DNA from: Chloroflexota bacterium
GTDB lineage: Bacteria; Chloroflexota; Anaerolineae; UBA7937; B3-Chlor
Assembly: GCA_030603665.1 (NCBI GenBank)
Contig: JAUVXJ010000001.1
Coordinates: 214,480 to 278,479 of the forward strand
Direction of reading: 5' to 3'
Length of the DNA: 64,000 nucleotides
Shown: positions 784-26,969 of the stretch, one piece after another
Position numbering within the stretch: position 1 is the stretch's first letter
How the letters are laid out: each line of letters begins with the position of its first letter
Translations under genes and position numbers: made by a program
The notes under the pieces: model-generated
Told to the model about the DNA's origin: nothing
The model's database searches: none
What the model saw: only the letters and a program-made list of their open reading frames with translations

Positions 784-3126
784 CTACTCCCTCGTCCTCC
801 AACGAAGGGTGGCGTACCCTGCTAATCCAGCAAGGCCGCTGCCCAGAAGCAGAATGGTGCCGGGCTCGGGGACCAACTCCTCCGGTGCGACGGGCTCCTC
901 CGGTGCGACGGGCTTCTCCGAGGACTGGCAGATCTCGGCCTCCCCGTCATCGACGCAGACTTGGATATTGTAGATGCGATTGTCACCGTAGGTGTAAGGG
1001 ATTGTCACGCCGCCACACCAGGGGTCGCAGTCGCCCTGCCTTTCACTTCGCGTCTGATATTGCTCTGTGCCGTCGCCCCAGTCGACGCTCACGGTAACAC
1101 TTTCGGCGGCAGGGTCGCTCCATTGGACGAGCAGTTGGCCCCTCTGCCCTGCACGTCCCGAGTGCTGCCAATCCCAACCGATCGTGGGCTGGACGTTCAT
1201 CTGCTGGATCGTCGTGGTCACAGTCTGCGAGTAGCCCCAGTATTCCAGAGTCACTTCGCAACTGCAGCTCCCCGGAGGACCAGTGAACACGGCTCGACTA
1301 TCATCGTCCGTTGGCGTCAAGGAGCCCTCGCACTCGCTGCAGTCTAGGCTCCACCAATATGGTTCAGCAGGAGGCAAGATCGAATAGATGATCTGCGCCG
1401 AGGTGGCCCAGTTGTCATGAGCCCCCTCGGGGTAGTATTGGCATCCACCTAGACTATCATTGGCGCCCACCCAGCGCGCCTCGATGACGTTGCCAGTCCC
1501 ATCGCACTGGATATAGTAGCCTCCGTATCTCCAGTTCTGGTAGATTCTGAGTGTCGAAGTCTGGGGCCCGCAGAAAGTGAACGACGACATCTCATTATCG
1601 AAGAAGTCAAGACCGTTGGGGCCTCCCGTGAAGTCGTCGAATTCATCCGTGTATTGGTCCTCCCAGTCCATCATCAGAGCGCTACCCTCGGGGAGCACCT
1701 TGTTCATATTGGCGTTGTCGAACATATGCACCCACGGGTCGATCACGTAGACCTCGCCGTTCAGCTCCAGGCTGGATCCTTCGTCGATGCTGTAGGGCCC
1801 ACCGAGGTGGTCCTCTCGCCACTGCGGCCCGCATGTCTTGGTGTGGGAGACATAGATACTTCTGTATTCGCCCATCTCGATGACCGGGACCTCTTCTCTC
1901 GTAAACGCCTGGTGATCCGCAGTGTAAAGGATGAGCTGTCCCGTAGGGCTCACATAGATGCCGGAGGCGGCGTCCAGATCACCAAAATTTCCACCTGGAA
2001 TGCTGCTCAGATCAAGAGGACCCTCAAGCCTAAGGTCGCTCACCTGGATATGCCTGAGCAGCTCGAACGTGACGGCATCTGCAGACGGGCTTGGCAGGAG
2101 TTTGCTTTCATCGACACTGTACAAAGCTATCCAGTCGTGGCCAACATCTAGCAAATCTGTACTGTTGTCCCCAGCGATGAGATACAGCGCGCCGGAGGTG
2201 TCACGGACAAAATTAAGCGTCTGCCATTTAAGGTCATCGGGCATGAACGGCTGAGTGTAACCAATTATGTCAATATCGAAGTCACCATGGCCCAGGGGGT
2301 AGCCGTTCGAATAGGCGAAGGCCCATACACTGGAGTCGCCCCAAGTGAAGACGAACAGGTATTTATCCTCGTCAATGTTACTCCTGGTGACGCCAACGAC
2401 GCCGAGCCCGTCAAGCATCAGCGACCGATGATACTTGGGCACTGGGTTCATAGGATCCCCGACGTCAATCAGGGCTAATCCGGCTCTACCGTCGCATTGT
2501 GTACGGTCGCATCCCCAACCTCCAGTGGTACACTCCAAAGGCACCGCCAAGAAGTCGTCGATAAGCTGCACGCCGCCGGCGTGCCAATACTTCGGCCAGC
2601 CGCCTGTTCCGTCAAACAACCTGGTGGACTTGACCCCCCTGTCGTCCGAAGGTGGGGCCGTATCCGCGAAATCTTTGTCCGGCTTCAGGCGGTTGGAGCG
2701 GAGCCGCTCGCCGAACGTATCCCTAGATCCCATTCTCACGATCAGTAATTCACCGGGCTGACAGTCCCAACCAAGGCACGAACCTGTCCTGTTCCTGTTC
2801 CTTGTCAGGAACAAGTAAGGCGTGCCGTCGGGGCCTGCACCTCGCGCCATGCCCTGGTAGTGCCTACATGGGATCAAGCCATAGTCGGTCTTACCCACAC
2901 CCACCCGGGCGCCCAGTGGATCGCCGAAGTTCTGAAGATCCTCAAACTGCTTGTATACGTTGGGCGCTTCTCTATAGGGGGTGTTGTAGTTTTGGACGTC
3001 ATCATCCAACGTGGACAGCGGCGCCGTATCGCTCAGCGGCTTGGAAGCCCCCGTTGCGCCGACGAGCGCCAGCAGCAGCCCAACCACAACTATCCCATTC
3101 AACCACACTCTGCGCTTCATTCTCAA
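784..3126 (-). CDS. secreted protein with C-terminal PEP-CTERM sorting signal (exosortase substrate), function unknown
   Basis: 780 aa. The N-terminus is a signal peptide (MRMKRRVWLNGIVVVGLLLALVGATGA). The C-terminus is (PVAPEE)x3 - VPEPGTILLLGSGLAGLAGYATL - RWRTRE, i.e. a PEP motif, then a TM helix, then an Arg-rich tail, which matches PEP-CTERM. Confidence 0.75.
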   Translation of the reverse strand: MRMKRRVWLNGIVVVGLLLALVGATGASKPLSDTAPLSTLDDDVQNYNTPYREAPNVYKQFEDLQNFGDPLGARVGVGKTDYGLIPCRHYQGMARGAGPDGTPYLFLTRNRNRTGSCLGWDCQPGELLIVRMGSRDTFGERLRSNRLKPDKDFADTAPPSDDRGVKSTRLFDGTGGWPKYWHAGGVQLIDDFLAVPLECTTGGWGCDRTQCDGRAGLALIDVGDPMNPVPKYHRSLMLDGLGVVGVTRSNIDEDKYLFVFTWGDSSVWAFAYSNGYPLGHGDFDIDIIGYTQPFMPDDLKWQTLNFVRDTSGALYLIAGDNSTDLLDVGHDWIALYSVDESKLLPSPSADAVTFELLRHIQVSDLRLEGPLDLSSIPGGNFGDLDAASGIYVSPTGQLILYTADHQAFTREEVPVIEMGEYRSIYVSHTKTCGPQWREDHLGGPYSIDEGSSLELNGEVYVIDPWVHMFDNANMNKVLPEGSALMMDWEDQYTDEFDDFTGGPNGLDFFDNEMSSFTFCGPQTSTLRIYQNWRYGGYYIQCDGTGNVIEARWVGANDSLGGCQYYPEGAHDNWATSAQIIYSILPPAEPYWWSLDCSECEGSLTPTDDDSRAVFTGPPGSCSCEVTLEYWGYSQTVTTTIQQMNVQPTIGWDWQHSGRAGQRGQLLVQWSDPAAESVTVSVDWGDGTEQYQTRSERQGDCDPWCGGVTIPYTYGDNRIYNIQVCVDDGEAEICQSSEKPVAPEEPVAPEELVPEPGTILLLGSGLAGLAGYATLRWRTRE
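877..928. repeat. tandem 18-nt repeat (about 2.8 copies of ctcctccggtgcgacggg) encoding the PVAPEE linker repeats of the PEP-CTERM protein
   Basis: Direct inspection shows units at 877-894 and 895-912, with a degenerate third copy. Confidence 0.6.
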
Positions 3127-3804
3127 ATCTCCTTTCTTTCTCCAAGCTTACACCAACGTTGCCAGTTGTATCCGCCTCATTCCCCCATCTCCCTTCCGTC
3201 GCTAACCTCAGATCGACTTTCCCGATACCTGTTCATCCGTGCTGCTCATCACCTTCCGCCCCAAAAAGTGGGGGCTCGCCGGGTTGCGCCCAGCGAGCCC
3301 CTGTGCTAGAATAAGGGTGCACAAAGGGTGCCGAGAGCGCCTTGAGTGCATGGTCTTGGCCGGCCTTAACCCGGCCGAGACCACTTTCTATCTGTACCAC
3401 ACGAAGAAACCGGCCATACCTCCGGCCGGTTTCACTATTGGCTTACTGAGGGCCAAGTGACCACCTTGCGGCCCTCAGATCATCGCCTCCGGGATGTCAC
3501 ACTCGTCTTGGGATCAAAAAAGCGCCAACCGTCCGCTGCTTTAGCGAGAACGATCGGCGCTCCATATATTCCTCCTTCTTGCGGTTCAATTCGGGCGGTT
3601 GAAACGACAACTGTTCGATATAGATGTTAACTATACCGCTATCGGAGAGTCCGTCTTCTGCGCATAATGCCCTTCCTGTCCATTATATACCAAAATTGAA
3701 GACTTGTCAAGTTGGCAACGGCTATTTAGCTCTCACCTGTCCCCCGGGGGTGAGGAGAGGGCCAGCACTCCCATCAGCTTCACATTTCGACTTATGGGTA
3801 ACGC

Positions 3805-4293
3805 ATGGCCCATCGAGCGGGAGAAAACCTGCTGTCCTCGGGCGACCGGGACAGTCTAGAGCAACTGGAGGGGTTGTTGCTCTCTTTGAAGAGCATCGCA
3901 GAGAAGGAGCTCCGGAAAGAGGAACTCACTGAGAGCGAGTACGACCTCATCAACTCCTATGGCGACATCATGGAGACGCTCACCGGGGCTGCCGCTGACA
4001 AACCTCCGCCAGGCGGTTCCGTCGATGAGGAAGAAGCGGCAATGGTCGCGGACGTGGCCACCGACCCCAACAGCGGCAGCGTCTTGGAGGAAGGCGTAGG
4101 GAAGATCTATCAGATCTTTGTGGTCGCGGAGGTGGACGGGCAGCTCAGGCTGACCCAGGGTGGGGTCTTCTCCTACTACGAGTTCGGATGGCCCATGAGC
4201 GACCGCCTCACTGACGAGGCATGGCGCGAGCTGCTGAATAGTGGCCAGGCACCAGCCCGGCCAGAGTGGACCGCTAGCTTCATCTCACAATAG
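3805..4293 (+). CDS. hypothetical protein (162 aa)
   Basis: An ATG ORF bounded by an upstream in-frame stop. It is acidic and Glu/Leu-rich, with no signal peptide and no family I recognise. It may be a remnant. Confidence 0.35.
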   Translation: MAHRAGENLLSSGDRDSLEQLEGLLLSLKSIAEKELRKEELTESEYDLINSYGDIMETLTGAAADKPPPGGSVDEEEAAMVADVATDPNSGSVLEEGVGKIYQIFVVAEVDGQLRLTQGGVFSYYEFGWPMSDRLTDEAWRELLNSGQAPARPEWTASFISQ

Positions 4294-4497
4294 TACAGTG
4301 TGTGCTCCCCTGCCAGGGGAGATACTAGTCCATGGTCAAGTCGCCAGGGTCAGACATAGAACCAGCTCAACGGGTTCTCTGGCGTGGCGTGGGAGGAGGG
4401 CCGCCGTTCTAGAGCGACGGCCCTTTCTGTATTCGTTTGCGCCAGCAACATGCTCCTTGGGAACCACCTCTTCGGTCGCGACGGCACCCGCCAGTGT

Positions 4498-4527
4498 TTG
4501 ACAGGGAGCAACTCCATGGGCTATAAT
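4498..4527 (+). promoter_or_regulatory. near-consensus sigma70-type promoter (TTGACA-N18-TATAAT) upstream of the hdr cluster
   Basis: TTGACA is at 4498-4503, followed by an 18-nt spacer and TATAAT at 4522-4527. It lies about 135 nt upstream of the hdrA' ATG at 4666. A perfect consensus is unusual in 60% GC DNA. Confidence 0.45.
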
Positions 4528-4567
4528 ATCAATTGCAAATCTTACCGCGGTGGTCCGATTTTCTGCC

Positions 4568-4600
4568 AGGTGGATGCGAAATCGAGGCCACCTTTTGCTG
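4568..4600 (+). promoter_or_regulatory. leader hairpin followed by a T-tract (possible attenuator) in the hdrA' 5' UTR
   Basis: aggtgg (4568-4573) pairs with ccacct (4588-4593) across a 14-nt loop and is followed by TTTTGCTG. It sits between the predicted promoter and the start codon. Confidence 0.2.
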
Positions 4601-4665
4601 GTTGGCATGTGGTACGCTGGCCTGGCTTCTGGGCAACCTGTCGATCGGGCTCTGAAGGGGTAAGA

Positions 4666-5988
4666 ATGGGCGCGACACTGGTCATTGGCGCGGGCATCGC
4701 GGGTATGCAGGCCGCCCTGGACATCGCGGATGCGGGGTTCAAAGTCTACCTTGTAGAGAGAGACCCAAGCATCGGAGGGCGGATGGCCCAGCTCGACGAA
4801 ACCTTCCCCACCCTCGATTGTTCCTCGTGCATCCTTACACCAAAGATGGTCAGCGTGGGTGGTCACCCCAATATAGAATTGCTGACCTACTCGGAGGTGG
4901 TACAGCTCGAAGGAGACGTCGGGGACTTCAGGGTGAAGGTGCGGAGGAGGCCCCGGTACATTGACGCTGACAAGTGCACAGCATGCGGCATCTGTGCCGA
5001 GAACTGCCGTCTGAAGGGGAGGATAGACAGCGAATTCAACGTGGGCATGGGCAAGCGCAGCGCCGCGTATGTGCCCTTCCCGCAAGCCGTCCCGCTGAAG
5101 TACACCATCGACAGCGAGCGCTGTCTGATGGTGCAGAGAGGTAAGTGCGGCGAATCCCCGCCTTGCAGAAACGCGTGCCCGGCAGGCGCGGTGGACTTCG
5201 ATCAGCAGGAAGAGATAGTGGACCTCCAGGTGGACTCCGTGATCGTGGCCACCGGGTTTGACCCATTTGACCCTCACTTGAAGCCAGAGTACGGGTACGG
5301 TCTCTACGACAACGTGATCACCGGCCTCCAATTCGAGCGACTGTCGTCTGCCTCAGGCCCGACCTACGGTGAGATCAAGCTTAACGACCGAGAGATCAAC
5401 GACGTCGTCTTCATCCAGTGCGTGGGCAGCAGAGATCGCAATCTGGGGAACGTCTACTGCTCACGTGTGTGCTGTATGTACACTGCAAAACAGGCGCACC
5501 TGGTCCGCGAGAAGCTGCCAGATGCGCGGGTGACGGTCTTCTACATGGATATCAGGGCCTTCGGCAAAGGCTTTGAGGAGTTCTATGATCGGGTGAGGGA
5601 AGAGCGTGTACAGTATCGTCGTGGCAACCCAGCGGAGATCCACCGGCGCGGGGACCGTCTGGTCGTCAGGGCAGAGGACACATTGCTAGGCCAGCCCGTG
5701 GAGGTAGAGGCTGACCTAGTGGTCCTGGCGATTGGTCTCGTGCCGCGGGCAGACACGCAAGCTCTGGCTGAGTTGCTCGGTCTATCGTCATGCGAGGACG
5801 GATTCTTCCAGGAAGCTCATCCTAAGTTTCGACCCACAGAGACCGATGTAAGCGGAGTCTTTCTGGCGGGATGCTGTCAGGGTCCAAAGGACATCCCCGA
5901 CGCAGTGGCCCAGGGCAAGGCCGCGGCTGCGTCCGCCATTGTAATCATGTCACGATCCGGTTCAGCACTCACCCCAGGTGAGGAGTGA
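4666..5988 (+). CDS. hdrA: heterodisulfide reductase subunit A-like flavoprotein, short form (FAD domain plus inserted 2x[4Fe-4S] ferredoxin domain; no N-terminal Cys domain and no C-terminal ferredoxin domain)
   Basis: It contains MGATLVIGAGIAGMQAALDIADAGFKVYLVERDPSIGGRMAQLDETFPTLDCSSCILTPKM and FIQCVGSRDRNLGNVYCSRVCCMYTAKQAHL, plus an inserted CTACGICAENC...CGESPPCRNACP. The ORF caller extends it to 4384, but the Shine-Dalgarno sequence (gaagggg) and the homology begin at ATG 4666. Confidence 0.8.
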   Translation: MGATLVIGAGIAGMQAALDIADAGFKVYLVERDPSIGGRMAQLDETFPTLDCSSCILTPKMVSVGGHPNIELLTYSEVVQLEGDVGDFRVKVRRRPRYIDADKCTACGICAENCRLKGRIDSEFNVGMGKRSAAYVPFPQAVPLKYTIDSERCLMVQRGKCGESPPCRNACPAGAVDFDQQEEIVDLQVDSVIVATGFDPFDPHLKPEYGYGLYDNVITGLQFERLSSASGPTYGEIKLNDREINDVVFIQCVGSRDRNLGNVYCSRVCCMYTAKQAHLVREKLPDARVTVFYMDIRAFGKGFEEFYDRVREERVQYRRGNPAEIHRRGDRLVVRAEDTLLGQPVEVEADLVVLAIGLVPRADTQALAELLGLSSCEDGFFQEAHPKFRPTETDVSGVFLAGCCQGPKDIPDAVAQGKAAAASAIVIMSRSGSALTPGEE

Positions 5989-5994
5989 GGAGAA

Positions 5995-7113
5995 ATGGAA
6001 GCCGAACAGAGTCTCTTGGAACGTTGTGACCTCTGGGCGTGCATCCAGTGCGGCAAGTGCACTGGAGGGTGTCCCATGTCCTTCAAGACAGAGTTGAACA
6101 TCAGAAGACTGATCTACCAGGCGCTGCTCGATGGGGGCGTGAATGCCGATGGGATGGACGAACTGTGGGACTGCACTGCGTGTGGAACTTGCGTCCTCCG
6201 CTGCCCCAAGGAGGTTGGGCCATCAGACCTGATCGTAGCGTTGCGTACCACTTTGGTTGACGGAGGAGTGATTCCCCCTACCATCAGGGACGCTCTCACC
6301 AGTGTCTTCAGGCACGGCAACCCGTCACTCATGCCACCCGACGAGAGGGCTGACTGGGCGGAGGCTCTTGGCGTCAAGGATATCTCTGAAGGCGCGGACG
6401 TACTATACTTCGTTGGCTGCATTCCGTCGTACGATGATCGTGCCCAGAAGGTGGCCAAGTCTCTGGTGAAGGTCCTCCAGAAGGCAGACGTGGACTTTGG
6501 CATCCTTGGGGTGGAGGAAAAGTGCTGCTGCAACGAGGTTCGCCTAGTGGGTGAAGAAGGCCTCTTCGGGTACATGGTGGAAGAGCAGCGGGAACTGTTC
6601 GAGAGCAAGGGTGTCCAACACATCATCACTACCTCTCCACACTGCTTCAATACCTTCAAGAACGAATACGAAGGCTTGAATCTCAAGGTGCAGCACTACA
6701 CAGAGTTCGTCGCTGAACTCATTGAGCAGGGAAAGCTGACCTTCACCGGCGAACTCAACCAGGTGATCACCTATCACGACCCTTGCTTCCTGGGCAAACA
6801 GAATGGCGTCTTCGACGAGCCACGCGATATCATCAAGAGCATCCCGGGCGTCGAGTTCCGCGAGATGGACCGCATTCGTGACCGAAGCCTCTGCTGTGAG
6901 GGCGGCGGCGGGAGAATGTGGTGGGAGGGCACCAATCCGGAAGAGCAGCTCGCGACGGCACGCTTCGAGGAGGTGTTGAGCGTAGGCGCCGATGTCATGG
7001 CAGTCGCCTGCCCATTCTGCCTCCTCACCTTTGAGCTGGCTGCCAAGGCCGGGGGATACGACGAGAAAGTTCAAGTACTGGATATCATGGAGCTGGTGGC
7101 CCGAGCCATCTGA
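5995..7113 (+). CDS. HdrD-like iron-sulfur protein (fusion of an HdrC-type 2x[4Fe-4S] domain and an HdrB-type domain with two CCG motifs)
   Basis: The N-terminal part has CIQCGKCTGGCP and CTACGTCVLRCP. The C-terminal part has the CCG motifs ...VGCIPSY...EKCCCNEVR... and ...YHDPCFLG...SLCCEGGGG. A gaggag Shine-Dalgarno sequence precedes the ATG. Confidence 0.8.
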   Translation: MEAEQSLLERCDLWACIQCGKCTGGCPMSFKTELNIRRLIYQALLDGGVNADGMDELWDCTACGTCVLRCPKEVGPSDLIVALRTTLVDGGVIPPTIRDALTSVFRHGNPSLMPPDERADWAEALGVKDISEGADVLYFVGCIPSYDDRAQKVAKSLVKVLQKADVDFGILGVEEKCCCNEVRLVGEEGLFGYMVEEQRELFESKGVQHIITTSPHCFNTFKNEYEGLNLKVQHYTEFVAELIEQGKLTFTGELNQVITYHDPCFLGKQNGVFDEPRDIIKSIPGVEFREMDRIRDRSLCCEGGGGRMWWEGTNPEEQLATARFEEVLSVGADVMAVACPFCLLTFELAAKAGGYDEKVQVLDIMELVARAI

Positions 7114-7141
7114 TAATTGAGTCTTCTGAGCGGGAAAGAAG

Positions 7142-8857
7142 ATGGCAGCCAAGGTCGGAGTATACATCTGCCACTGCGGCATTAACATAGCGCATACGGT
7201 GGATGTCGAGGCAGTAGCGCAGGCGGCGCAGGACTTGGCGAACGTGACCGTTTCCAGGGACTACATCTACATGTGTTCTGACCCCGGACAGCAACTGATC
7301 CAAGATGACATCAGGGAGCTAGGTCTCAACCGCGTCGTAGTGGCCTCATGCTCTCCGCGCATGCATGAGCTAACCTTCAGAAGGGCGGTTCAGGAGGCCG
7401 GACTCAACCCCTACTTCCTGCAGATCGCCAATATCAGGGAGCAGTGCTCATGGGTGCATGGCGACCGTGAGTCTGCGACCGAGAAGGCCCAAGGCATCGT
7501 GTCCTCTGCGGTTGCCAGAGCGTGTCTTCTCCAACCGTTGGAGGAGAGAGACGTGGAGATCACACCTGCCGCGTTGGTCATCGGAGGGGGCATAGCAGGT
7601 CTTCAGGCCGCTCTGGACATCGCCGATGCTGGCTTCAAAGCCTACGTAGTTGAGAAGCAAGCAACCGTGGGTGGCCACGTCGCTCAGCTGGCGAGAACAT
7701 TCCCAACATTGGACAACGTCCAGACGCTACTGGCTGAGCTGGTGGAGAGGGCACAGGCGCACCCCAACATCGATGTACTGACCAACTCGCGCGTGCTGGA
7801 GGTGGATGGATTCATCGGGAGTTTTCGTGTGCAGGTAGGCTCACAGCCAGCGGATTCTTTGCCAGAGACTACCGCAGAGCTGGCTGTAGGGGCGATCATC
7901 GTCGCTACGGGCTTCGACGTCTTCGACGCCAGCCTGAAGCCGGAGTTCGGATATGGGGCATATGAGAACGTGATCACGGGACTGGAACTAGAGAAGCGCC
8001 TCATGGAATCCGAGGCGAGCAATGGCGCGAGCCCCCTTGGAGACGGAGCCGTCAAGGATGTGGTGTTCATCCAGTGCGTAGGCAGCAGGGATCGTACTCT
8101 GGGAAACGCTTACTGTTCTCGCGTGTGCTGCATGTCCACCGCGAAACAAGCTCACCTAGTCAGACAAGAGCTGCCAGACGCCCGGATCACTGTCTTCTAC
8201 ATGGACGTGCGCGCTTTCGGCAAGGGCTTCGAGCAGTTCTATGACCGGGTACGGGAGGAAAGAGTCCTCTATCGACGGGGGAATCCATCTGAGATCTACA
8301 AGAGAGGAGACAGGCTTGTCGCGAGAGCGGAGGACACCCTGCTGGGAAAGCCTGTGGAGGTTGAGGCTGACCTGGTGGTGCTGGCCACAGGTCTGGTGCC
8401 GCGGAGTGACGCGGACGAGATCGGAAGCTTGCTGAAGCTGTCTCGCTCCGAGGATGGATTCCTCATGGAGTTGCATCCGAAGCTCGGGCCGGTTGACACC
8501 ACAACTGATGGAGTCTTCCTTGCTGGCTGCTGTCAAGGACCCAAAGATATTACGGATACGATCGCGCAGGCGAAGGCGGCGGCATCTTCAGCTTTGATAC
8601 CGCTGTCCGTAGGCAAGGTGAGAGTTGAGTCGATTACCTGCGCTTTGGACCCGTTGTTGTGCTCGGGATGTGGACTGTGTGCTGAGGCGTGTATCTATAG
8701 TGCCCTGGCCCTCGACGAGCGTCGAAACGTGATGGTAGCCAACCAGGTGCTGTGCAAGGGCTGCGGAGCGTGCTCTACCGCCTGCCCGTCTGGCGCTATT
8801 GTACTCAATCACTTCACCCCCGACCAGATCCTGGCCGAGGTGGAGAGTGTAGTTTGA
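7142..8857 (+). CDS. hdrA: heterodisulfide reductase subunit A, long form (N-terminal Cys-rich domain, FAD domain, C-terminal 2x[4Fe-4S]); it lacks the ferredoxin insertion present in the upstream copy
   Basis: The N-terminus is VGVYICHCGINIAH. The FAD fingerprint is VIGGGIAGLQAALDIADAGFKAYVVEK, with FIQCVGSRDRTLGNAYCSRVCCMSTAKQAHL. The C-terminus carries CALDPLLCSGCGLCAEAC and CKGCGACSTACP. Confidence 0.85.
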   Translation: MAAKVGVYICHCGINIAHTVDVEAVAQAAQDLANVTVSRDYIYMCSDPGQQLIQDDIRELGLNRVVVASCSPRMHELTFRRAVQEAGLNPYFLQIANIREQCSWVHGDRESATEKAQGIVSSAVARACLLQPLEERDVEITPAALVIGGGIAGLQAALDIADAGFKAYVVEKQATVGGHVAQLARTFPTLDNVQTLLAELVERAQAHPNIDVLTNSRVLEVDGFIGSFRVQVGSQPADSLPETTAELAVGAIIVATGFDVFDASLKPEFGYGAYENVITGLELEKRLMESEASNGASPLGDGAVKDVVFIQCVGSRDRTLGNAYCSRVCCMSTAKQAHLVRQELPDARITVFYMDVRAFGKGFEQFYDRVREERVLYRRGNPSEIYKRGDRLVARAEDTLLGKPVEVEADLVVLATGLVPRSDADEIGSLLKLSRSEDGFLMELHPKLGPVDTTTDGVFLAGCCQGPKDITDTIAQAKAAASSALIPLSVGKVRVESITCALDPLLCSGCGLCAEACIYSALALDERRNVMVANQVLCKGCGACSTACPSGAIVLNHFTPDQILAEVESVV

Positions 8858-9050
8858 GAAGCACGAGCATCCGTCCCGCGCCAGACGCGCGTGGTGCACT
8901 ACCATGCTCTTTTGCATCTCTGCCCTCGCGGCGTGCGATGTTACGTTCATTGTGCTCTCGGCCCAGACCTTCGAGCATCTGATAGACAAGTGAGACTGCG
9001 GAAGCCTACTGCCTTGGGCAGCAATCAGTTCGCTTCGGAAAGGGCATTTC

Positions 9051-9635
9051 ATGACTAACGCTCAGCTCTCCGGTAAGCTGCGAGCCTTCGTGGTCGTACT
9101 GGACAGGCTAATAGCCGGGTTGTCACGCCACTGGCTTCTGCTGTTCAACCTTGTCTTCGGTCTGTACGCGGGCCTTCCACTCTTGGCTCCTGTGCTCATG
9201 TCCTGGGGTCGGACGAGGCTGGCCAATGTAATCTACTTCGTGTACCAATTCCAGTGCCATCAAATGCCTTCACGTTCCTACTTCATTGGACGCTTCCAGG
9301 TGGGCGTATGCCAGCGTGACCTCGCTATCTACGGGGGGGCTTGTCTCGCCGGGATCGCCTTCTCCCTCGTCAGGAACCGAGTCAGATCGCTGCCCATTCC
9401 AGTCTGGCTGGTGCTCGTTGCACCACTTGCTCTCGATGGCGCGACCCAACTCCTCGGTCTCCGGACGAGCACGTGGCAATTGCGGACGATCAGCGGTTTC
9501 CTGGCCAGCGGGGCGACGGTCTGGTTTGCTTACCCGTATCTCGATCGCGCCTTCGGAGAAGCCCGAAAATCGGCAGAATCTCAGTTGCGAAAGGTGGAGA
9601 CCAGGAACGGAGAATGTACTGGCGGAGTTCGCTAG
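9051..9635 (+). CDS. DUF2085-like polytopic membrane protein
   Basis: It has four or five hydrophobic helices and a Cys pair (FQCHQMP...VGVCQRD), resembling the DUF2085 family. Confidence 0.5.
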   Translation: MTNAQLSGKLRAFVVVLDRLIAGLSRHWLLLFNLVFGLYAGLPLLAPVLMSWGRTRLANVIYFVYQFQCHQMPSRSYFIGRFQVGVCQRDLAIYGGACLAGIAFSLVRNRVRSLPIPVWLVLVAPLALDGATQLLGLRTSTWQLRTISGFLASGATVWFAYPYLDRAFGEARKSAESQLRKVETRNGECTGGVR

Positions 9636-10464: not shown

Positions 10465-13080
10465 CTAGGCACCCCTACCCTTTCCGCCTGTCTCGGCGAT
10501 TAGTCGCTGCACTTCGGCCTTCTCATCGTCGAGCGTGGCAACCCTGCCATCGAGCCTGGCATCTCGCAGCGCACCTAGTATCTCTGCGTACCGCGGCCCG
10601 GGAGGAAGACCCATCTTTCTTAGCTCATCCCCGTCAATGAGGGGTGTAACAGAGCTCAATTCCGTGTGATACAGTTCCAGCCGCTCCCTGACAAGGTCAT
10701 CCTCTGAGGACAGCCACCAAACGAAGATCACCGGGTCAGGGTGCGGTGACAGCAAGCGGTACAAGCTGCTCCTCGGCAGCCCTTGTTCCGCTAGCGGCGG
10801 CAGCAAGGAGTTCAGCAGCTGGGCATCCAGGAGGAAGCGCGTCTCATCCTTCGGTAGTCTCAGGCGCTCCGCCAGCGACTGGATGCCCTCCTGCCCAGCT
10901 CTGATGCCCACCAGCGCCAGATAGGTCATCGCCAGAGTCAGCCTGCGGGAATCGGGCATGGACTGTGACCCTGATGGCCGACTATACCAGTGCGTTGCCG
11001 CGGCGGCATACCCGCCCACGCGGTCCTCGAGCCAGGTATCCCATCTCAAGAGAGGTGATATCTGCTTGAGCACGCCCAGCTCGGCTAGTCGCCGCAAGGG
11101 ATTCGCGGGCTCGTCCTCCTGGAAGACGGCATCCAACTCCTGCCATATGCGCTCACCGCCAACTCTGTCCAGCCACTCCAGCGCGTCGGAGATCAAATCT
11201 TCGGTCATTTCCTCCAGTCTGAACCCAAGCCTCTGCTCCAGACGCACAGCTCGCAGCATGCGGATTGGGTCCTCTATGAAGCTCAGATTGTGGAGAACCC
11301 GAATCAGTCCCTGCCTCAGGTCTCGCTCCCCACCATAGAAGTCAAGCAGTCCGCCGAATGTGTCTTCGTCTAAACTTATTGCCATAGTATTTATGGTGAA
11401 GTCCCGGCGGTAGAGGTCTTGCTTGATCGAGCTACGTTCCACCTGAGGCAGCGCCGTCGAGTATTCATAGAACTCCCGTCGGGCGGTGGTGAAATCGATA
11501 GAGGGCACGGATTCATCCTTGTCATCAAAGATCAAGCTCGCTGTGCCAAACCGAGAGTGGCTGTGCACACGCCCCCCCGCAACTTCGGAGAGACCTCTGG
11601 CCAGGGCGATCGCATCACCCTCGACCACGATATCCAGATCCAAGTGGGCCTTCCCCAGGAGCAGATCCCGCACGAAGCCGCCAACCAGGTATAGCGAATA
11701 GCCCATCTCCCTCGCCAGCTGGCTGGCCTTGAGGACTCGATCCAAGAGCGACTCGGGCAGCCCCTCACGCACCCGCTCTGAGAGGTCGCTACCAGGGGAG
11801 GGGCCACGCGCATGGGCCCACAGCTCGATTAGGTCAGTCCGCGTGACGATGCCCACTATCTCACCGTTCTCCACCACCGCCACCTGACCCACGCCATGTT
11901 GTATCATCACGTCCTGCAGGCGCTCTACGGAGTCTGATGGCGCGACGACGATCTCGCCTTTTCTCATGTAGCTACCGATTGGAGCATCCTCTCTCTCATA
12001 TTGCAGAGCCTTGTCGATCTCGCGGCGCGTCAACATGCCGAGCACCTTGCCGCTCTCCGCCACCACTGGAAACCCTTCATGCCCGTACCGGCGCATCACT
12101 TCCGCTGCATCCCGCACCAGGGTATCTGGCGACAGGGTGTACGCGCCATGCGACATCAGGTCGGCCACCGTGGTCGAGGGCCGTACCTCCTGGGCCAGGA
12201 GCTGCAGCAGTCGTTGGCGGATGTGCTCCACCGCGCCATCCCGGATGAGCGCAGCAGCCGCTTTGCTGTGCCCCCCACCGCCAAAACCGCGCGCAATCTC
12301 CGCCACGTCGATAGCGTCTGAGTTGCTGCGAGCCACAAGCTGGACACTAGCCTCCAGACCGACGATCACGAAGAGTGCAGATGGCTCATAAAGATCTCTC
12401 AGCTTGTGAGCCAGGGTAGAGATCTCCTCCAGAAAGTTCGGCGCTCTGACTGCAGCGACAACTACGGTGTGTCCTGCAAACTCGTGAAACTCCACCGCCT
12501 CCACAAGGCTTCGATAGAGCTGCTGCTGGCCCTCGCTGAGGGGTCGGTGGAGGAACTCATTGACCACTTCCAGGTTGGCTCCTTGCTCCAGCAACCAAGC
12601 GGCGCAACGGGCATCCAGCGCTTTGGTGCCTGGGTAGCTGAGAGAACCCGTGTCCTCATATATGCCAAGCAATAGAAGAGTCGCTTCCACCGGGGATACG
12701 CTCAACTGTGACTGGCCAATCTGCTCCACCAAGAGGCTGGTGGTCGAGCCCACATCCTCCGAGTGGAAGCTCATCGTGGGCTCGAGCTCCCTCTCCAGAG
12801 GATGATGATCGATGATTCGTACCTCCGTGTCCGCAGTCAGACCCTTCAGTGAGGGGATGCTCTGTGTGTCAACCACAATCAAGAGCTTGATCCGTCCGCG
12901 CGGCATGTCCTCTCGGCGCACGAAGGGGAGTTCATCCCAGTACAGCGCTAGGAAATCCTGAAGGTTGCGGTTCAGTCGCTGGGGCAACACGGCGATAGCT
13001 TTGGGGTACAGTTTCACTGCACCCAGCATGGACGCCAGGCCGTCGAAATCCGTGTTCTCGTGGGAAGTTGCGATCTCCAT
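10465..13080 (-). CDS. cca: multidomain tRNA nucleotidyltransferase (CCA-adding / poly(A) polymerase head domain), with an N-terminal DHH-DHHA1 phosphoesterase and a CBS pair
   Basis: The DHH domain reads LKMEIATSHENTDFDGLASMLG...IIDHHP. The CBS pair includes VADLMSHGAYTLSPD. The Pol-beta NTase head reads LYLVGGFVRDLLLGKAHLDLDIVVEGD. The start was moved to the ATG at 13080 (MEIATSH), where the homology begins. Confidence 0.8.
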   Translation of the reverse strand: MEIATSHENTDFDGLASMLGAVKLYPKAIAVLPQRLNRNLQDFLALYWDELPFVRREDMPRGRIKLLIVVDTQSIPSLKGLTADTEVRIIDHHPLERELEPTMSFHSEDVGSTTSLLVEQIGQSQLSVSPVEATLLLLGIYEDTGSLSYPGTKALDARCAAWLLEQGANLEVVNEFLHRPLSEGQQQLYRSLVEAVEFHEFAGHTVVVAAVRAPNFLEEISTLAHKLRDLYEPSALFVIVGLEASVQLVARSNSDAIDVAEIARGFGGGGHSKAAAALIRDGAVEHIRQRLLQLLAQEVRPSTTVADLMSHGAYTLSPDTLVRDAAEVMRRYGHEGFPVVAESGKVLGMLTRREIDKALQYEREDAPIGSYMRKGEIVVAPSDSVERLQDVMIQHGVGQVAVVENGEIVGIVTRTDLIELWAHARGPSPGSDLSERVREGLPESLLDRVLKASQLAREMGYSLYLVGGFVRDLLLGKAHLDLDIVVEGDAIALARGLSEVAGGRVHSHSRFGTASLIFDDKDESVPSIDFTTARREFYEYSTALPQVERSSIKQDLYRRDFTINTMAISLDEDTFGGLLDFYGGERDLRQGLIRVLHNLSFIEDPIRMLRAVRLEQRLGFRLEEMTEDLISDALEWLDRVGGERIWQELDAVFQEDEPANPLRRLAELGVLKQISPLLRWDTWLEDRVGGYAAAATHWYSRPSGSQSMPDSRRLTLAMTYLALVGIRAGQEGIQSLAERLRLPKDETRFLLDAQLLNSLLPPLAEQGLPRSSLYRLLSPHPDPVIFVWWLSSEDDLVRERLELYHTELSSVTPLIDGDELRKMGLPPGPRYAEILGALRDARLDGRVATLDDEKAEVQRLIAETGGKGRGA

Positions 13081-13168
13081 CTTCAGCCCTCTGGTGAGAA
13101 TTCTATCACGGCGCGTCCCCTTTTGACAATCGGCTGGCGCTGGCCTATAATCCCCGGTCAATACGCAC

Positions 13169-14959
13169 TTGAGGTGTGCCCTTTTTGTCGGAGCGAGATT
13201 TGTGATTTCGAAGATCCAAACCAACGCCAGACTCTGGCTTCTGGTCGTGTGTCTCGTCGTAACCGGTGCTTTGCTGGCCAACATGCTCGTGCCCCTCGCC
13301 TTCTCAGCGAGAACTGCTGCGTCGGGCTACCACACAGCTCATCTCATTCCCAACACCGATGTCAACCCCTATGGAGCAAACCTCTTCCTGGACCGTGAGG
13401 TGGAGGAATGGAAGCTCAGAAAGACCCTCCAGATGGCAAGTGAAGCAGGTCTGGGCTGGGTCAAACAGCAGTTCCCCTGGGAGGAGATAGAGCTGGTTCA
13501 GAAGGGGGTGTTCTTTGACGAGCGGATCAGGCGTAGCAGTTGGGACAAGTATGACCGCATAGTGGACCTGTGCGAGGAATACGGTCTTGAGATCATTGCT
13601 CGTCTCGACAGACCTCCCGACTGGACCAGAGAGGACAACACCTACAAGGAACGCCCTCCAGACAACTTCGAGGACTACGGCGATTTCGTCTTCGAGTTCG
13701 TGACTCGCTACCGCGGGCGAATCCGCTATATTCAGATCTGGAATGAACCCAACATCTTTCCTGAGTGGGGCAACAGACCAGTGGACCCGGCGGGGTACGC
13801 TGAGCTCTTACGGGTAGCATATCAGCGTGCGAACGAAGCAGATCCCAACGTATATGTGTTGAGCGCTCCGCTGGCCATCACTCTCGGGCAAGTGCACCCA
13901 GAGCCAGACAAGTGGATCAGCATGAATGAGATCGACTTTCTAGATGAGGTGTATGAGGCAGGCGCCAAGGACCACTTCGACATCCTGTCGGCGAACGCCT
14001 TCGGGCTGGGCAGCCCGCCTGACGATCCACCTGAGCCACGAACCCTCAACTTCCAGCGGGCTCTCCTCCTGCGAGAGGTCATGGAGCGATACGGAGACGG
14101 TGACAAACCAATATGGTTCAATGAGTACGGTTGGAACGCGTCGCCTGAGGATTTTCCCGAGGAAGAGCTTTTGTGGCAACGGGTAAGTGAAGAGGAGCAG
14201 GCGGATTTCACCGTCCGGGGCATCCAGCACGCGCAGGAAGACTGGCCTTGGTCAGGAGTGTTCAACATCTGGTATTTCCGGCAGGTTGGCAATATCTCTC
14301 CAGACAGTTCCGACTACTACTTCCGAATGGTGGATATTGACTTCACTCCTCGCCTCGTGTACTACGCGATCAAGGAAGCAGCACAGACATCACTGGACCC
14401 TGTTGGACCCGGCTACTACCAGGAGACGAATCCGGCTGTGAGCCTTGAGGGAGAGTGGCACCCTGTGATAGAGCCTCAAGCTAGCGCTCAGGCACAGGTG
14501 GTCACTGAGGCTACCGGTTCTACGGTGACGCTGCCCTTTGTGGGGGAGAACGTGGACTTGATCGCCTCGCTTGGGCCCGAGGGGGGGCGTCTCGCCGTAT
14601 CCCTGGATGGGCATACTGTCGACGGCCTGCCAAGGAATGCAGAGGGCCACTCCTATGTTGACCTATTCAGCCCGGTGCGCCGGTGGCAGCAACGAATCCC
14701 ACTGATCTATCAAGCCGATGATGCCGAGCATACCCTCATCTTGGCGGTGCTCGAACGTGCAAGCCTGGCGTCGGAAGGCAACCAGATCGCTATCGACGCT
14801 TTCGAGATCACGCGAGGAGAGCGAGCTTCCCCACCTTATGGCATGGTCGCTCTGCTGAGCCTGGTAATGGTAGTTGTGGGAGGCCTCACGGTCCGGGAGT
14901 GGAGACTACTGCGGCGAGGCGACGCTGTGGTGACCACCGGGGACCGGGCGTCAGCTTGA
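13169..14959 (+). CDS. membrane-anchored TIM-barrel glycoside hydrolase (GH5-like, NEP motif) with an N-terminal signal anchor and a C-terminal TM plus basic tail
   Basis: It reads RIVDLCEEYGLEIIARLDRPPDW...RYIQIWNEPNIFPEWG. The C-terminus is PPYGMVALLSLVMVVVGGLTVREWRLLRRGD. Confidence 0.65.
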   Translation: MRCALFVGARFVISKIQTNARLWLLVVCLVVTGALLANMLVPLAFSARTAASGYHTAHLIPNTDVNPYGANLFLDREVEEWKLRKTLQMASEAGLGWVKQQFPWEEIELVQKGVFFDERIRRSSWDKYDRIVDLCEEYGLEIIARLDRPPDWTREDNTYKERPPDNFEDYGDFVFEFVTRYRGRIRYIQIWNEPNIFPEWGNRPVDPAGYAELLRVAYQRANEADPNVYVLSAPLAITLGQVHPEPDKWISMNEIDFLDEVYEAGAKDHFDILSANAFGLGSPPDDPPEPRTLNFQRALLLREVMERYGDGDKPIWFNEYGWNASPEDFPEEELLWQRVSEEEQADFTVRGIQHAQEDWPWSGVFNIWYFRQVGNISPDSSDYYFRMVDIDFTPRLVYYAIKEAAQTSLDPVGPGYYQETNPAVSLEGEWHPVIEPQASAQAQVVTEATGSTVTLPFVGENVDLIASLGPEGGRLAVSLDGHTVDGLPRNAEGHSYVDLFSPVRRWQQRIPLIYQADDAEHTLILAVLERASLASEGNQIAIDAFEITRGERASPPYGMVALLSLVMVVVGGLTVREWRLLRRGDAVVTTGDRASA

Positions 14960-26213: not shown

Positions 26214-26969
26214 TTGCCCATCATGAGCACCATGGTGGTTATGCCCACGTACAACGAGGCCGGGAATCTCATCCAGATCGTGGCCGAGTTGATGACCCTG
26301 GATCTGGATGGTCTGCAAATCCTGATCATAGATGACAACTCTCCAGATGGTACCGGGCAGATGGCTGACGAGTTGGCAGCGCAGTACGAGGATCGAGTGC
26401 ACGTGATCCATCGCCAGGGCAAGATGGGTCTCGGCACCGCATATGTCACGGGCTTCCGGTACGCCCTGGAGTGCGGTGTGGACTATGTAGTGCAGATGGA
26501 TGCGGATTTCTCCCATTCTCCCTCGTACATCCCCACTTTTCTCGACAAGATACGCGACTATGATGTTGTCATCGGCTCTCGCTACGTCGCCGATGGTGGA
26601 GTAGACGAGCGATGGAGCCCGTGGCGCCGCTTCCTCAGCTGGGGTGGGAACACGTACGCCGGTCTCATCACCGGGCTTCGAATACACGACGTCACGGGCG
26701 GGTTCAGGTGTTTCCGCCGTGATGCGCTTCTCGGACTCGATCTCGGCCAGATTCGCTCGGAGGGGTACGCCTTTCAAATAGAGATGGCGTATGCGTGCCA
26801 GATCAAGGGCCTCCGGCTCGGTGAGGTTCCCATCTACTTTGAGGACCGTTCAATGGGGTTGTCGAAGATGAGTTGGTGGATTGTCCTGGAGGCCGTGTGG
26901 CGCGTGTGGCAAATGCGATGGCGCTACAGGCATGGTGAGAGTCGCCCAGCGGGCGGGGTTGGTAGTTGA
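26214..26969 (+). CDS. polyprenol-phosphate glycosyltransferase, GT2 (DPM1/GtrB/CsbB-like)
   Basis: It reads VVMPTYNEAGNL...LIIDDNSPDGT...VVQMDADFSH...GSRY...GGFRCF, followed by a C-terminal amphipathic/TM segment. Confidence 0.85.
   Translation: MPIMSTMVVMPTYNEAGNLIQIVAELMTLDLDGLQILIIDDNSPDGTGQMADELAAQYEDRVHVIHRQGKMGLGTAYVTGFRYALECGVDYVVQMDADFSHSPSYIPTFLDKIRDYDVVIGSRYVADGGVDERWSPWRRFLSWGGNTYAGLITGLRIHDVTGGFRCFRRDALLGLDLGQIRSEGYAFQIEMAYACQIKGLRLGEVPIYFEDRSMGLSKMSWWIVLEAVWRVWQMRWRYRHGESRPAGGVGS

Follow-up and report, generated by a model that had tools for sequence, protein, structure and literature searches.

How does a bacterium use two HdrA paralogues of which neither carries the full set of HdrA domains? 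This question is raised by three genes related to heterodisulfide reductase (Hdr) in a Chloroflexota bacterium of the class Anaerolineae (assembly GCA_030603665.1, contig JAUVXJ010000001.1). The genes lie in a stretch of 64,000 nucleotides (nt; contig positions 214,480 to 278,479, forward strand), to which we refer as the window and whose numbering is used throughout. The open reading frames (ORFs) are intact and co-directional on the + strand, with intergenic gaps of 6 and 28 nt, and they are as tightly packed as a first-pass annotation, made from the bare sequence, had described them (FAD, flavin adenine dinucleotide; aa, amino acids):

4666 to 5988, + strand: hdrA' (the short copy), 440 aa; FAD-binding thioredoxin-reductase core with an inserted ferredoxin domain
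5995 to 7113, + strand: gene for an HdrD-like fusion of HdrC and HdrB, 372 aa; BamD/EtfD type
7142 to 8857, + strand: hdrA (the long copy), 571 aa; FAD core between an N-terminal cluster domain and a C-terminal 2x[4Fe-4S] domain

A comparison of the encoded proteins with solved structures and with related loci leads us to propose that the trio would form the core of an asymmetric HdrA-type enzyme for flavin-based electron bifurcation (or, in reverse, confurcation). That such an enzyme would have a single bifurcating site, to which both HdrA copies contribute, is in our judgement probable.

Two complementary HdrA copies

Residues 4-430 of the short copy align with residues 146-567 of HdrA from M. 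thermolithotrophicus (5ODC_A, E 9e-153). [quoted passage not shown] The long copy aligns with an HdrA of the M. marburgensis type (8RVU_a, E 2e-187) in two blocks, residues 3-236 with 12-246 and residues 236-570 with 317-652, by which the inserted ferredoxin domain is skipped exactly. This domain-by-domain alignment with solved HdrA structures bears out what the first-pass annotation had read from the sequence, i.e. an upstream copy composed of the FAD domain and an inserted 2x[4Fe-4S] domain without the terminal domains, and a downstream copy with the N-terminal domain, the FAD domain and a C-terminal 2x[4Fe-4S] domain without the insertion. The NCBIfam HdrA/HdrA2 scores (561 and 682 bits) are below the cut-offs of 1100-1400. 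The elements that matter for the comparison are the following:

4816 to 4830, + strand: DCSSC, the Cys52/Cys55 pair after FPTLD in the short copy; equivalent to Cys194/197 (5ODC) and Cys202/205 (M. marburgensis) as counted from the alignments
4948 to 5214, + strand: inserted ferredoxin domain of the short copy, with eight Cys (104, 107, 110, 114, 153, 161, 167, 171) for two [4Fe-4S]
5419 to 5490, + strand: CVGSRDx8CSRVCC of the short copy, for the [4Fe-4S] beside the FAD ('HA4'), with Lys275, the Lys409 equivalent by alignment count
7142 to 7546, + strand: N-terminal domain of the long copy, with Cys10, 12, 45 and 70 conserved with methanogen HdrA ('HA3' shuttle cluster)
7700 to 7729, + strand: FPTLDNVQTL of the long copy, both Cys of the pair replaced (Asn, Thr)
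8075 to 8146, + strand: CVGSRDx8CSRVCC with Lys335, the cluster motif beside the FAD in the long copy
8624 to 8854, + strand: C-terminal ferredoxin domain of the long copy, two CxxCxxCxxxC motifs (Cys507-517 and Cys538-548); putative electron-entry arm

The flavin core is common to the two copies. Pfam FAD/NAD families match both, and the GxGxxG Rossmann motif for FAD binding reads GAGIAG in the short (residues 8-13) and GGGIAG in the long copy (residues 148-153). Both also have the CxGxRDx6-8CSxxCC motif, which aligns with Cys386/399/403/404 of 5ODC by alignment count, and both have kept the lysine five residues past the CC. This Lys409 equivalent we take to be the flavin-N5 lysine. Beyond the core, no single polypeptide contains all four domains together with the Cys pair, and the two taken together contain each exactly once. 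The latter count is correct for the accessory domains; the FAD core and the adjacent [4Fe-4S] motif are present in both copies, and the earlier statement that the paralogues add up to exactly one HdrA therefore needs to be narrowed in this respect.

The Cys pair (FPTLDCSSC in the short versus FPTLDNVQT in the long copy) is confined to the copy without an N-terminal domain. This distribution was followed in an alignment of 67 HdrA-like proteins from fetched relative loci (designated here by L-numbers, L001 etc.). Both Cys and the eight-Cys insert were found in 24/24 short-type proteins, whereas either Cys of the pair was found in 0/32 long-type proteins without the insert. Seven other long partners, of Thermodesulfobacteriota-like organisms, Zixibacteria and unclassified metagenome-assembled genomes (MAGs), keep the insert and yet lack the pair, so that the total of long copies with the pair is 0/39. 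The N-terminal domain was found in all long copies aligned (126 aligned residues, 5-6 Cys), and canonical full-length HdrA with every feature was represented by only 3 proteins in the alignment. Judged from this alignment, the complementarity of N-terminal domain and Cys pair is a general rule of the family, and the long copy's loss of the insert is lineage-specific.

In methanogen HdrA, the pair is on the protomer of the bifurcating FAD and acts together with the shuttle cluster at the N terminus of the partner protomer (PMC9012536, PMC13580544, PMC12350162). Cys197 of a protomer is the residue that completes this cluster in its partner, by which the dimer becomes obligate (PMC9012536), and the Cys pair is situated between the [2Fe-2S] cluster of MvhD and the bifurcating FAD' (PMC13580544). 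More specifically, FAD', HA4' and HA5' are on one protomer, and the mobile arm, consisting of both terminal domains (N and C), HA3 and MvhD, comes from the other (PMC12350162, PMC13580544). Tandem complementary HdrA genes of anaerobic methanotrophic (ANME) archaea have been proposed to encode heterodimers (PMC9012536). The arrangement of adjacent genes that defines an asymmetric pair according to Chadwick et al. 2022, an N-terminal domain without Cys197 next to a Cys197 without N-terminal domain, is also found here. Since the second core is without the Cys pair, the exit domain and a partner arm, one heterodimer would contain exactly one full bifurcation pathway. Thus, the proposal of the first-pass annotation that the complementary paralogues form an HdrA'/HdrA heterodimer gains in strength through the Cys-pair rule (24/24 versus 0/39), and we consider a heterodimer with a single bifurcating site well supported and, on these inferential grounds, rather probable.

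All three genes are under strong purifying selection, with ratios of nonsynonymous to synonymous substitution rates (dN/dS) of 0.03-0.12. Between the window and five relatives the ratio is 0.04-0.09 for the short copy, 0.03-0.07 for the HdrD-like gene and 0.06-0.08 for the long copy; in the closer pair L013/L015, for which dS is unsaturated (about 0.4), it is 0.07, 0.08 and 0.12, respectively. The gene order short copy, HdrD-like gene, long copy (A'-D-A) is found with the same flanking genes in Chloroflexi bacterium B3_Chlor and in ten further Anaerolineae MAG contigs, and the short/long HdrA pair is found again in several phyla. With the short copy as query, a protein search yielded at least 8000 candidates, all with E <=1e-20. 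The best 120 clusters of that search are nearly all 430-465 aa long, with 69-95% identity, and the named sources among them are mostly Anaerolineae or Chloroflexi MAGs.

The relation between the two paralogues themselves has an aspect of its own. The thioredoxin-reductase cores (5209-5952 versus 7865-8608) are 69% identical over 248 residues, a value at least equal to the identity with same-type copies in other phyla (49-63%). In a neighbour-joining tree without support values, the copies cluster according to clade (window clade, L019, L024) and not according to their short or long type. This grouping hints at gene conversion between the tandem copies or at co-evolution of the dimer interface.

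The HdrD-like protein, its possible partners and the proposed electron path

The protein encoded between the two HdrA copies consists, according to Pfam, of a Fer4_8/9/17 dicluster domain and a CCG domain with two stretches (E 9e-27); the cubane motifs are formed by Cys16-26 and Cys60-70. Among solved structures, the soluble part of mycobacterial EtfD comes closest by far (9OJN, E 7e-53, residues 54-369 versus EtfD 406-742), and HdrC (4e-16) and HdrB (2e-5) are distant. The best NCBIfam match is the C-terminal part of TfrB, with 162 bits and below the cut-off of 385. Within its 372 aa there is no membrane anchor or haem-b domain, and there is no adjoining HdrE-like gene. The protein is therefore no EtfD or HdrDE in the strict sense, because the match covers only the soluble part of EtfD and an HdrE-like neighbour is lacking.

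Ligands were assigned using the EtfD ligand list (PMC13083937) and the alignment with EtfD. The second site, CCG-2, is complete (Cys264, 300, 301, 339 and 342). The first, CCG-1, is non-canonical (C142...C177-C178-C179...S214-P-H-C217), with Ser214 where EtfD has Cys581, and it contains the 'supernumerary' Hdr Cys178 and a clade-specific Cys179. Where the first-pass annotation counted both CCG motifs, there are indeed two CCG domains, and it is the canonical form of the first motif (Cys142/177/178/217 plus Ser214) that has to be given up. The conservation of these residues was followed over 44 loci, for which the HdrD-like protein had been scanned against a single genome of each species. Little or no variation was seen in the eight cubane Cys, in Cys142/177/178 and His216 and in the five Cys of CCG-2, and position 214 is Ser in 40/44 homologues. 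BamD has been reported to combine one 5-Cys with one 4-Cys site (through a Cys-to-Ser change), to bind no heterodisulfide and to pass the high-potential electron to an electron-transferring flavoprotein (ETF) (10.64898/2026.04.10.717634). The 4-Cys plus 5-Cys pattern found here appears to match that of BamD as described, residue equivalence being compared by description only. Taken together, the alignment with EtfD and the ligand pattern make the HdrD-like protein look more like BamD/EtfD than like HdrBC.

The stretch Cys177-Cys178-Cys179 (6523-6531) is in itself unusual, as the window clade has CCC instead of the canonical CCG; the third position is Gly in 27/44 and Cys in 11/44 homologues. 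The CCC adds a possible extra ligand beside the cluster that is without Cys214.

The genomic context of the HdrD homologues revealed two main arrangements. The window's own clade makes up 11/44 loci (82-88% identity, all Anaerolineae or Chloroflexota), and these contain A'-D-A only. In 28/44 loci etfB-etfA lies directly beside the HdrD homologue (BLAST count; confirmed by Pfam in L019 and L028). In the etfBA-adjacent loci (L019, L023, L026-L029 and L031-L049) the short/long HdrA pair usually comes next, often together with MvhD and an Fe-S protein of 330-390 aa. The hosts are other Anaerolineae, Dehalococcoidales, Thermodesulfobacteriota, Syntrophorhabdus, Zixibacteria, a Firmicutes MAG and Methanomassiliicoccales. 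The order in the Anaerolineae locus L019 is A'-(response regulator)-D-EtfB-EtfA-A, and the compact A'-D-A of the window could derive from an L019-like arrangement by loss or relocation of etfBA. Another group of Anaerolineae has the order A'-D-A-MvhD-(371 aa)-SdhB-like-TfrA-like.

Several of these clusters have features of their own. That of L028 runs on into corrinoid adenosyltransferase and methylmalonyl-CoA mutase, and in Syntrophorhabdus the short copy is replaced by a protein of 900-980 aa with an extra Cys-rich N-terminal region. In L002 (10001-18322), and also in L004, L022 and L030, the trio is followed by MvhD, the 371-aa Fe-S protein, a 230-aa SdhB-like protein and a 534-aa TfrA/SdhA/NadB-like flavoprotein, which could constitute an Hdr-linked fumarate-reductase-like or aspartate-oxidase-like system. 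In addition, multi-HdrA fusion proteins of 1022-1526 aa are encoded nearby in L002 and L004.

A tblastn search of the 64-kb window for MvhD, EtfA/B, the 371-aa protein and TfrA gave no homologue (for MvhD/FlpD none at E up to 10), and the same holds for the vicinity of the trio in the close relatives, up to 10 kb on each side. Pfam searches on 30 further ORFs of the window revealed no other redox partner, the small ORFs not having been scanned exhaustively for the sulfur carriers TusA, DsrE and LbpA; the remaining ORFs have housekeeping and cell-envelope functions. Within this scope, the earlier description of the trio as an orphan module holds. Because of the likeness to BamD/EtfD and the adjacency of etfBA in 28/44 genomes, we tentatively suggest that ETF may be a likelier partner of the HdrD-like protein than a heterodisulfide; acceptors other than these two keep a share of the probability.

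In the mechanism that we propose, the short and the long HdrA would pair through their thioredoxin-reductase cores, as HdrA homodimers do, with one of the two bifurcation sites complete. The short subunit would provide the bifurcating FAD, the Cys52/Cys55 pair, the adjacent [4Fe-4S] in the direction of HdrD and the inserted ferredoxin domain as low-potential exit, and the long subunit would provide the mobile arm, i.e. the N-terminal shuttle-cluster domain and the C-terminal 2x[4Fe-4S] domain for electron entry. Electrons would enter via the C-terminal ferredoxin domain and the N-terminal arm of the long subunit. An MvhD adaptor takes part at this point in relatives; here it would be encoded elsewhere or not be needed. 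The high-potential electron would pass from the adjacent cluster of the short subunit via the HdrD-like subunit to the acceptor, and the electron of low potential from the shuttle cluster of the long subunit via the inserted ferredoxin domain of the short subunit to ferredoxin. The reaction may also run backwards (confurcation). By analogy with the second FAD of BamE, the FAD of the long subunit is probably structural or non-bifurcating.

A number of points weigh against this proposal. The heterodimer is a prediction from sequence. Neither copy has lost any part of the FAD motif, of the cluster motif beside it or the lysine past the CC, so that inactivity of the FAD in the long copy cannot be read from the sequence; in fact, the long copy has a lysine where the inactive site of BamE has Gln. 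The link with ETF comes from homologues that are 37-59% identical, and the window's own clade (11 loci plus the window) is without nearby etfBA, mvhD or any other partner. The match with BamD in the position of the Cys-to-Ser change is one by description only, and the CCG sites are otherwise intact, which would still be compatible with a disulfide substrate.

These last points lead to the alternative that survives best, although we consider it unlikely: the trio could encode a true (hetero)disulfide reductase, in which the HdrD-like subunit reduces a small-molecule or protein disulfide (e.g. DsrC-like) and the HdrA pair bifurcates to ferredoxin. Such a function would agree with the presence of two CCG domains, all cubane ligands and a full 5-Cys CCG-2, with HdrC and HdrB as detectable relatives, and with thiol-oxidising TfrB as best NCBIfam match. 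However, the TfrB score of 162 bits is well below 385, EtfD is far closer than HdrB/HdrC, and etfBA is adjacent at 28/44 loci. Moreover, CCG-1 has Ser at its fifth Cys in 40/44 homologues, as reported for BamD, which does not reduce disulfides, and Pfam revealed no genes for DsrC or for coenzyme M (CoM) or coenzyme B (CoB) in the window.

Electron transfer without bifurcation, by which the HdrA pair and HdrD would wire ferredoxin or another carrier of single electrons to an acceptor, ETF or a different one, with no coupling of energy, strikes us as improbable. It would explain that no two-electron donor module (MvhD adaptor, hydrogenase, formate dehydrogenase or NADH module) is found nearby in the clade, and sHdr-type HdrA and QmoA are examples of HdrA homologues that need not bifurcate (PMC3333476). 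Nevertheless, the bifurcation elements (Cys pair, shuttle domain, inserted and entry ferredoxin domains, lysine) have been retained, and once only, and relatives keep mvhD directly downstream.

Still harder to maintain is a separate action of the two paralogues, as homodimers or with different partners, in which case their adjacency would reflect tandem duplication only; we regard this as very improbable. Both copies do keep the FAD and adjacent cluster motifs on cores that are 69% identical. Nevertheless, a short homodimer would have Cys pairs without an N-terminal cluster and no entry domain, and a long homodimer would have N-terminal domains without the partner Cys and no low-potential exit. 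In addition, the complementarity is strict in more than 60 proteins from several phyla, with a fixed co-occurrence with one HdrD gene. That the short copy, being without two canonical HdrA domains, is a decaying duplicate of the long one, an outcome already considered in the first-pass annotation, can be dismissed almost entirely, as its ORF is intact, all cofactor motifs are kept, dN/dS is low (0.04-0.11) and the form of about 440 aa recurs in almost all of the best 120 clusters.

Promoter, leader and genomic setting

The control region and the boundaries of the trio contain the following elements:

4403 to 4421, + strand: terminator-like hairpin, 6-bp stem then CCTTTCTGTA; ends the upstream truncated DUF3160 gene, putative 5' boundary of the hdr unit
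4498 to 4527, + strand: sigma-70-type promoter TTGACA-N18-TATAAT (-35 at 4498-4503, -10 at 4522-4527), 12/12 consensus matches
4537 to 4561, + strand: imperfect inverted repeat of 25 nt, AAATCyTACC-N5-GGTCyGATTT, spanning about +3 to +28 in the transcript as predicted
4549 to 4596, + strand: leader hairpin GGTGGTCCGATTT ... AAATCGAGGCCACC then TTTT (stem-loop 4549-4592, T-tract 4593-4596); possible attenuator/terminator
4654 to 4660, + strand: ribosome-binding site GAAGGGG, 5 nt 5' of the hdrA' ATG; same start Met in orthologues
8889 to 8907, + strand: terminator-like hairpin then TCTTTTGCAT; putative 3' boundary of the operon

The intergenic gaps, the conserved promoter and the flanking terminator-like hairpins mark the three genes as one operon, with transcription predicted to start from the promoter at 4498-4527. 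The GC content of the trio (58-60%) equals that of the flanks, and a recent import is therefore not indicated. An extension of the short ORF back to GTG 4384 (94 aa, 5 Cys) was rejected as coding sequence, as it would span the terminator, the promoter and the leader; the orthologues L001, L006, L013 and L015, in which the ORF starts on the conserved Met or a few codons away from it, are also against it, and where orthologous ORFs run longer the extra upstream sequence is unalignable.

The promoter that had been noted about 135 nt upstream is confirmed to have exact hexamers, with the -10 element ending 138 nt 5' of the hdrA' ATG. Its -35 and -10 elements are kept in 20/20 orthologous hdrA' upstream regions (nine Anaerolineae and 11 metagenomic leaders), and these regions are alignable only in GTTTGACA, GCTATAAT and the 25-nt element just past the -10. 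Apart from the promoter hexamers, the 25-nt repeat is thus the sole non-coding sequence to be conserved; each locus has one copy, invariably 5' of hdrA'. This comparative conservation strongly supports a real promoter and a functional element at the predicted 5' end of the transcript. Substitutions in the repeat in L013 and L014 break pairs without compensation, and since compensatory changes are lacking the readings as operator and as RNA hairpin are inseparable; the repeat could be a putative operator or a 5'-terminal RNA hairpin. It was found at the same position in L001, L006-L008, L010, L013-L015 and 11 metagenome contigs. A search for a wider regulon found the element once in the window, and 11/51 exact metagenome matches are hdrA' leaders; the other 40/51 are in unrelated contexts, several of them redundant and at about the chance level for an 18-base pattern, and do not point to additional targets.

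The window contains three perfect promoters, where 0.00 were expected from 100 shuffles, which suggests a wide use of near-consensus sigma-70 promoters in this organism. The second (TTGACA-N17-TATAAT, 3682-3710, - strand) is upstream of a riboswitch for cyclic di-GMP (c-di-GMP), c-di-GMP-II (RF01786, 3415-3499, - strand, 58 bits versus a gathering score of 53.5). Downstream of that riboswitch an ORF (784-3126, - strand) encodes 780 aa with a PEP-CTERM sorting signal, suggesting c-di-GMP control of a secreted or surface protein. The third (TTGACA-N17-TATAAT, 13123-13151, + strand) is 18 nt 5' of an ORF (13169-14959, 596 aa) without a Pfam match.

The leader hairpin and its T-tract are real features (dG -23.9 kcal/mol, z = -2.5 for the 67-nt segment), as had been claimed. 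However, only 9/16 unique orthologous leaders keep the hairpin, in which the loop is free, the bulged base varies and a U-G pair is changed to U-A, and the suggested attenuation is unproven. As a whole, the 135-nt leader shows no unusual stability (z = -1.45). The 5' arm of the hairpin is the right half of the 25-nt repeat. In the leaders of L010 and L071 this arm takes part in another hairpin, which has a double change (C-G to U-A) and no U-tract, and five leaders are without the hairpin. As an upstream AAAUC and a downstream AAAUC both complement GAUUU, alternative pairing is possible, with no covariation as proof. Attenuation by the leader hairpin, which has only four U behind it, is plausible. 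No Rfam family was found in the leader at the gathering threshold, and a known RNA or riboswitch was rejected after a permissive Rfam scan that gave only a chance microRNA match (E 0.33).

The genes around the trio are partly conserved. Upstream, only the last ~150 residues of a DUF3160 protein (3805-4293, + strand; profile positions 481-632 of 632) are encoded, whereas L013 has a full gene of 723 aa (L013 6192-8363) at the same place upstream of hdrA' and L001 only a 65-aa remnant; in the window, the N-terminal part has seemingly been replaced by the divergent riboswitch/PEP-CTERM unit. Near the trio are also a DUF2085 membrane protein (9051-9635, + strand) and a 939-aa fusion of DHH, DHHA1, CBS and poly(A) polymerase head domains (10465-13284, - strand), which are syntenic with it in most close relatives whose fetched contig reaches that far. 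The DUF2085 protein was considered and rejected as membrane anchor of the complex. It is ~1.6 kb further downstream of hdrA in L009, L011, L013 and L017, with ccmA/ccmB-like genes in the gap in L013, and it is absent outside the close clade; because of that insertion between hdrA and DUF2085 no functional link between hdr and DUF2085/DHH is implied. Further away, an ORF of 1357 aa (26966-31039, + strand) next to a family-2 glycosyltransferase joins a YfhO-like membrane region to a flippase region of the polysaccharide-biosynthesis/MatE-like kind; this ORF represents an unusual fusion or else a read-through of two genes.

Significance and comparison with known systems

HdrA-type enzymes are among the few known routes by which an electron pair is split to obtain electrons of very low potential, and structural work is actively addressing the division of labour between the two halves of an HdrA dimer. 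A split complementary pair would constitute a clean genetic system, in which the functions of Cys pair, shuttle cluster, entry and exit are spread over separate small genes, and with which the model that one protomer bifurcates and the other supplies the mobile arm could be tested. Moreover, in view of the genetic link between this type of HdrD and ETF, the BamD-to-ETF route may well be common among anaerobes, including the abundant and poorly understood Anaerolineae. With respect to annotation, the genes of the trio should not count as evidence of CoM/CoB heterodisulfide metabolism.

More speculatively, the trio may have shed etfBA and mvhD and become a self-sufficient minimal bifurcase, of three subunits and one active site, that works with ferredoxin, a trans-encoded ETF and a third carrier, without MvhD adaptor and under control of hitherto undescribed leader elements (25-nt repeat and terminator-like hairpin), and the HdrD-EtfBA-HdrA'/HdrA(-MvhD) clusters of Chloroflexota, Thermodesulfobacteriota, Syntrophorhabdus, Zixibacteria and Methanomassiliicoccales may represent an uncharacterised ETF-linked Hdr-type confurcating family. 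We give this extended scenario little credence at present; if true, the family would be of the kind that fermenters and syntrophs need to drive electrons of acyl-CoA oxidation uphill. Within an incomplete coverage of the literature, we found no published description of the A'-D-A operon or of the HdrD-EtfBA-HdrA'/HdrA clusters.

Membership in the Flx-Hdr, sHdr, Qmo, class II benzoyl-CoA reductase or MetFV-Hdr systems was rejected, as the defining genes were not found at the locus or in the window; the first-pass annotation had named Flx-Hdr and sHdr as systems to which the trio might turn out to belong. For Flx-Hdr, there are no flxABCD-type neighbours and no MvhD/FlpD at E up to 10, the neighbours being of the DUF3160, DUF2085 and DHH-CBS-poly(A) polymerase type. 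Compared with sHdr, in which (hdrC1B1A-hyp-hdrC2B2 with lbpA) HdrA is ~340 aa long without ferredoxin domains, HdrB/HdrC come as separate pairs and genes for lipoate-binding and sulfur-carrier proteins belong to the cluster, HdrC and HdrB are fused here and there is no second set, the small ORFs not having been scanned exhaustively for sulfur carriers; methanogen HdrA is also a far better match than the sHdr HdrA 6TJR (E 4e-51 and 8e-54). QmoABC (PMC3333476) likewise has two HdrA paralogues in one complex with an HdrC-related subunit, but the MvhD-like domain of QmoB, the membrane cytochrome b fusion of QmoC and the neighbouring aprBA are not present here: no MvhD-like sequence and no apr/sat genes were found in the window, and qmoC scores 33 bits versus a cut-off of 300. 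The MetFV-HdrABC-MvhD cluster of Moorella thermoacetica and marine Chloroflexi (PMC5736913, PMC9012536), which is also present in Anaerolineae, contains a bacterial HdrA with complementary halves; these are fused there, and the metF, metV and mvhD of that cluster are absent here.

The closest solved relatives of both HdrA copies belong to the methanogen HdrABC-MvhAGD complex (5ODC, 8RVU, 7BKB), with the same FAD, cluster and Cys-pair motifs; however, the complex is built on a symmetric homodimer of a 650-aa HdrA, with separate HdrB and HdrC, CoM-S-S-CoB as substrate and a hydrogenase as partner. Mycobacterial EtfD (9OJN) and methanogen HdrD resemble the middle protein in having two cubane and two CCG-domain clusters, with identical CCG-2 ligands (EtfD match over 316 residues), whereas the protein in the window is soluble, without the transmembrane/haem-b region or the C-terminal disordered tail of EtfD/HdrDE, and differs from EtfD in CCG-1 by Ser214 for Cys581 and the extra Cys178 and Cys179.

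With regard to the asymmetry of the HdrA pair, two systems come nearest. The HdrA5/6 and HdrA12/13 pairs of ANME archaea (with a fused HdrA3/4; PMC9012536) are likewise encoded by adjacent genes with complementary domains, and both their case and ours are predictions; here, however, the host is bacterial (Anaerolineae), the HdrD-type fusion gene lies between the copies whereas hdrBC is neighbouring in ANME, and the long copy has also lost the inserted ferredoxin domain. Fused complementary HdrA occurs both in ANME and in the Moorella MetFV-Hdr complex (PMC9012536). The second system is BamD-BamE(-BamF) of the class II benzoyl-CoA reductase of Geobacter metallireducens, which combines an asymmetric HdrA pseudo-dimer with an HdrBC-fusion subunit carrying a 5-Cys and a 4-Cys site, features that the trio appears to share. 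In its subunit BamE two HdrA units are fused into a dimer, in which one FAD bifurcates and the other does not (cryo-electron microscopy preprint 10.64898/2026.04.10.717634). Pfam revealed no tungsten modules (AOR-type BamB, BamC), fused BamE, BamF or BamGHI in the window; as compared by description, the HdrA halves are separate genes here and are fused and domain-permuted in BamE, and ETF is the high-potential partner of BamD-BamE, whereas here only the gene context of the homologues supports ETF. Thus the asymmetric HdrA design is already known, as it has been proposed for ANME archaea and solved in fused form in BamE.

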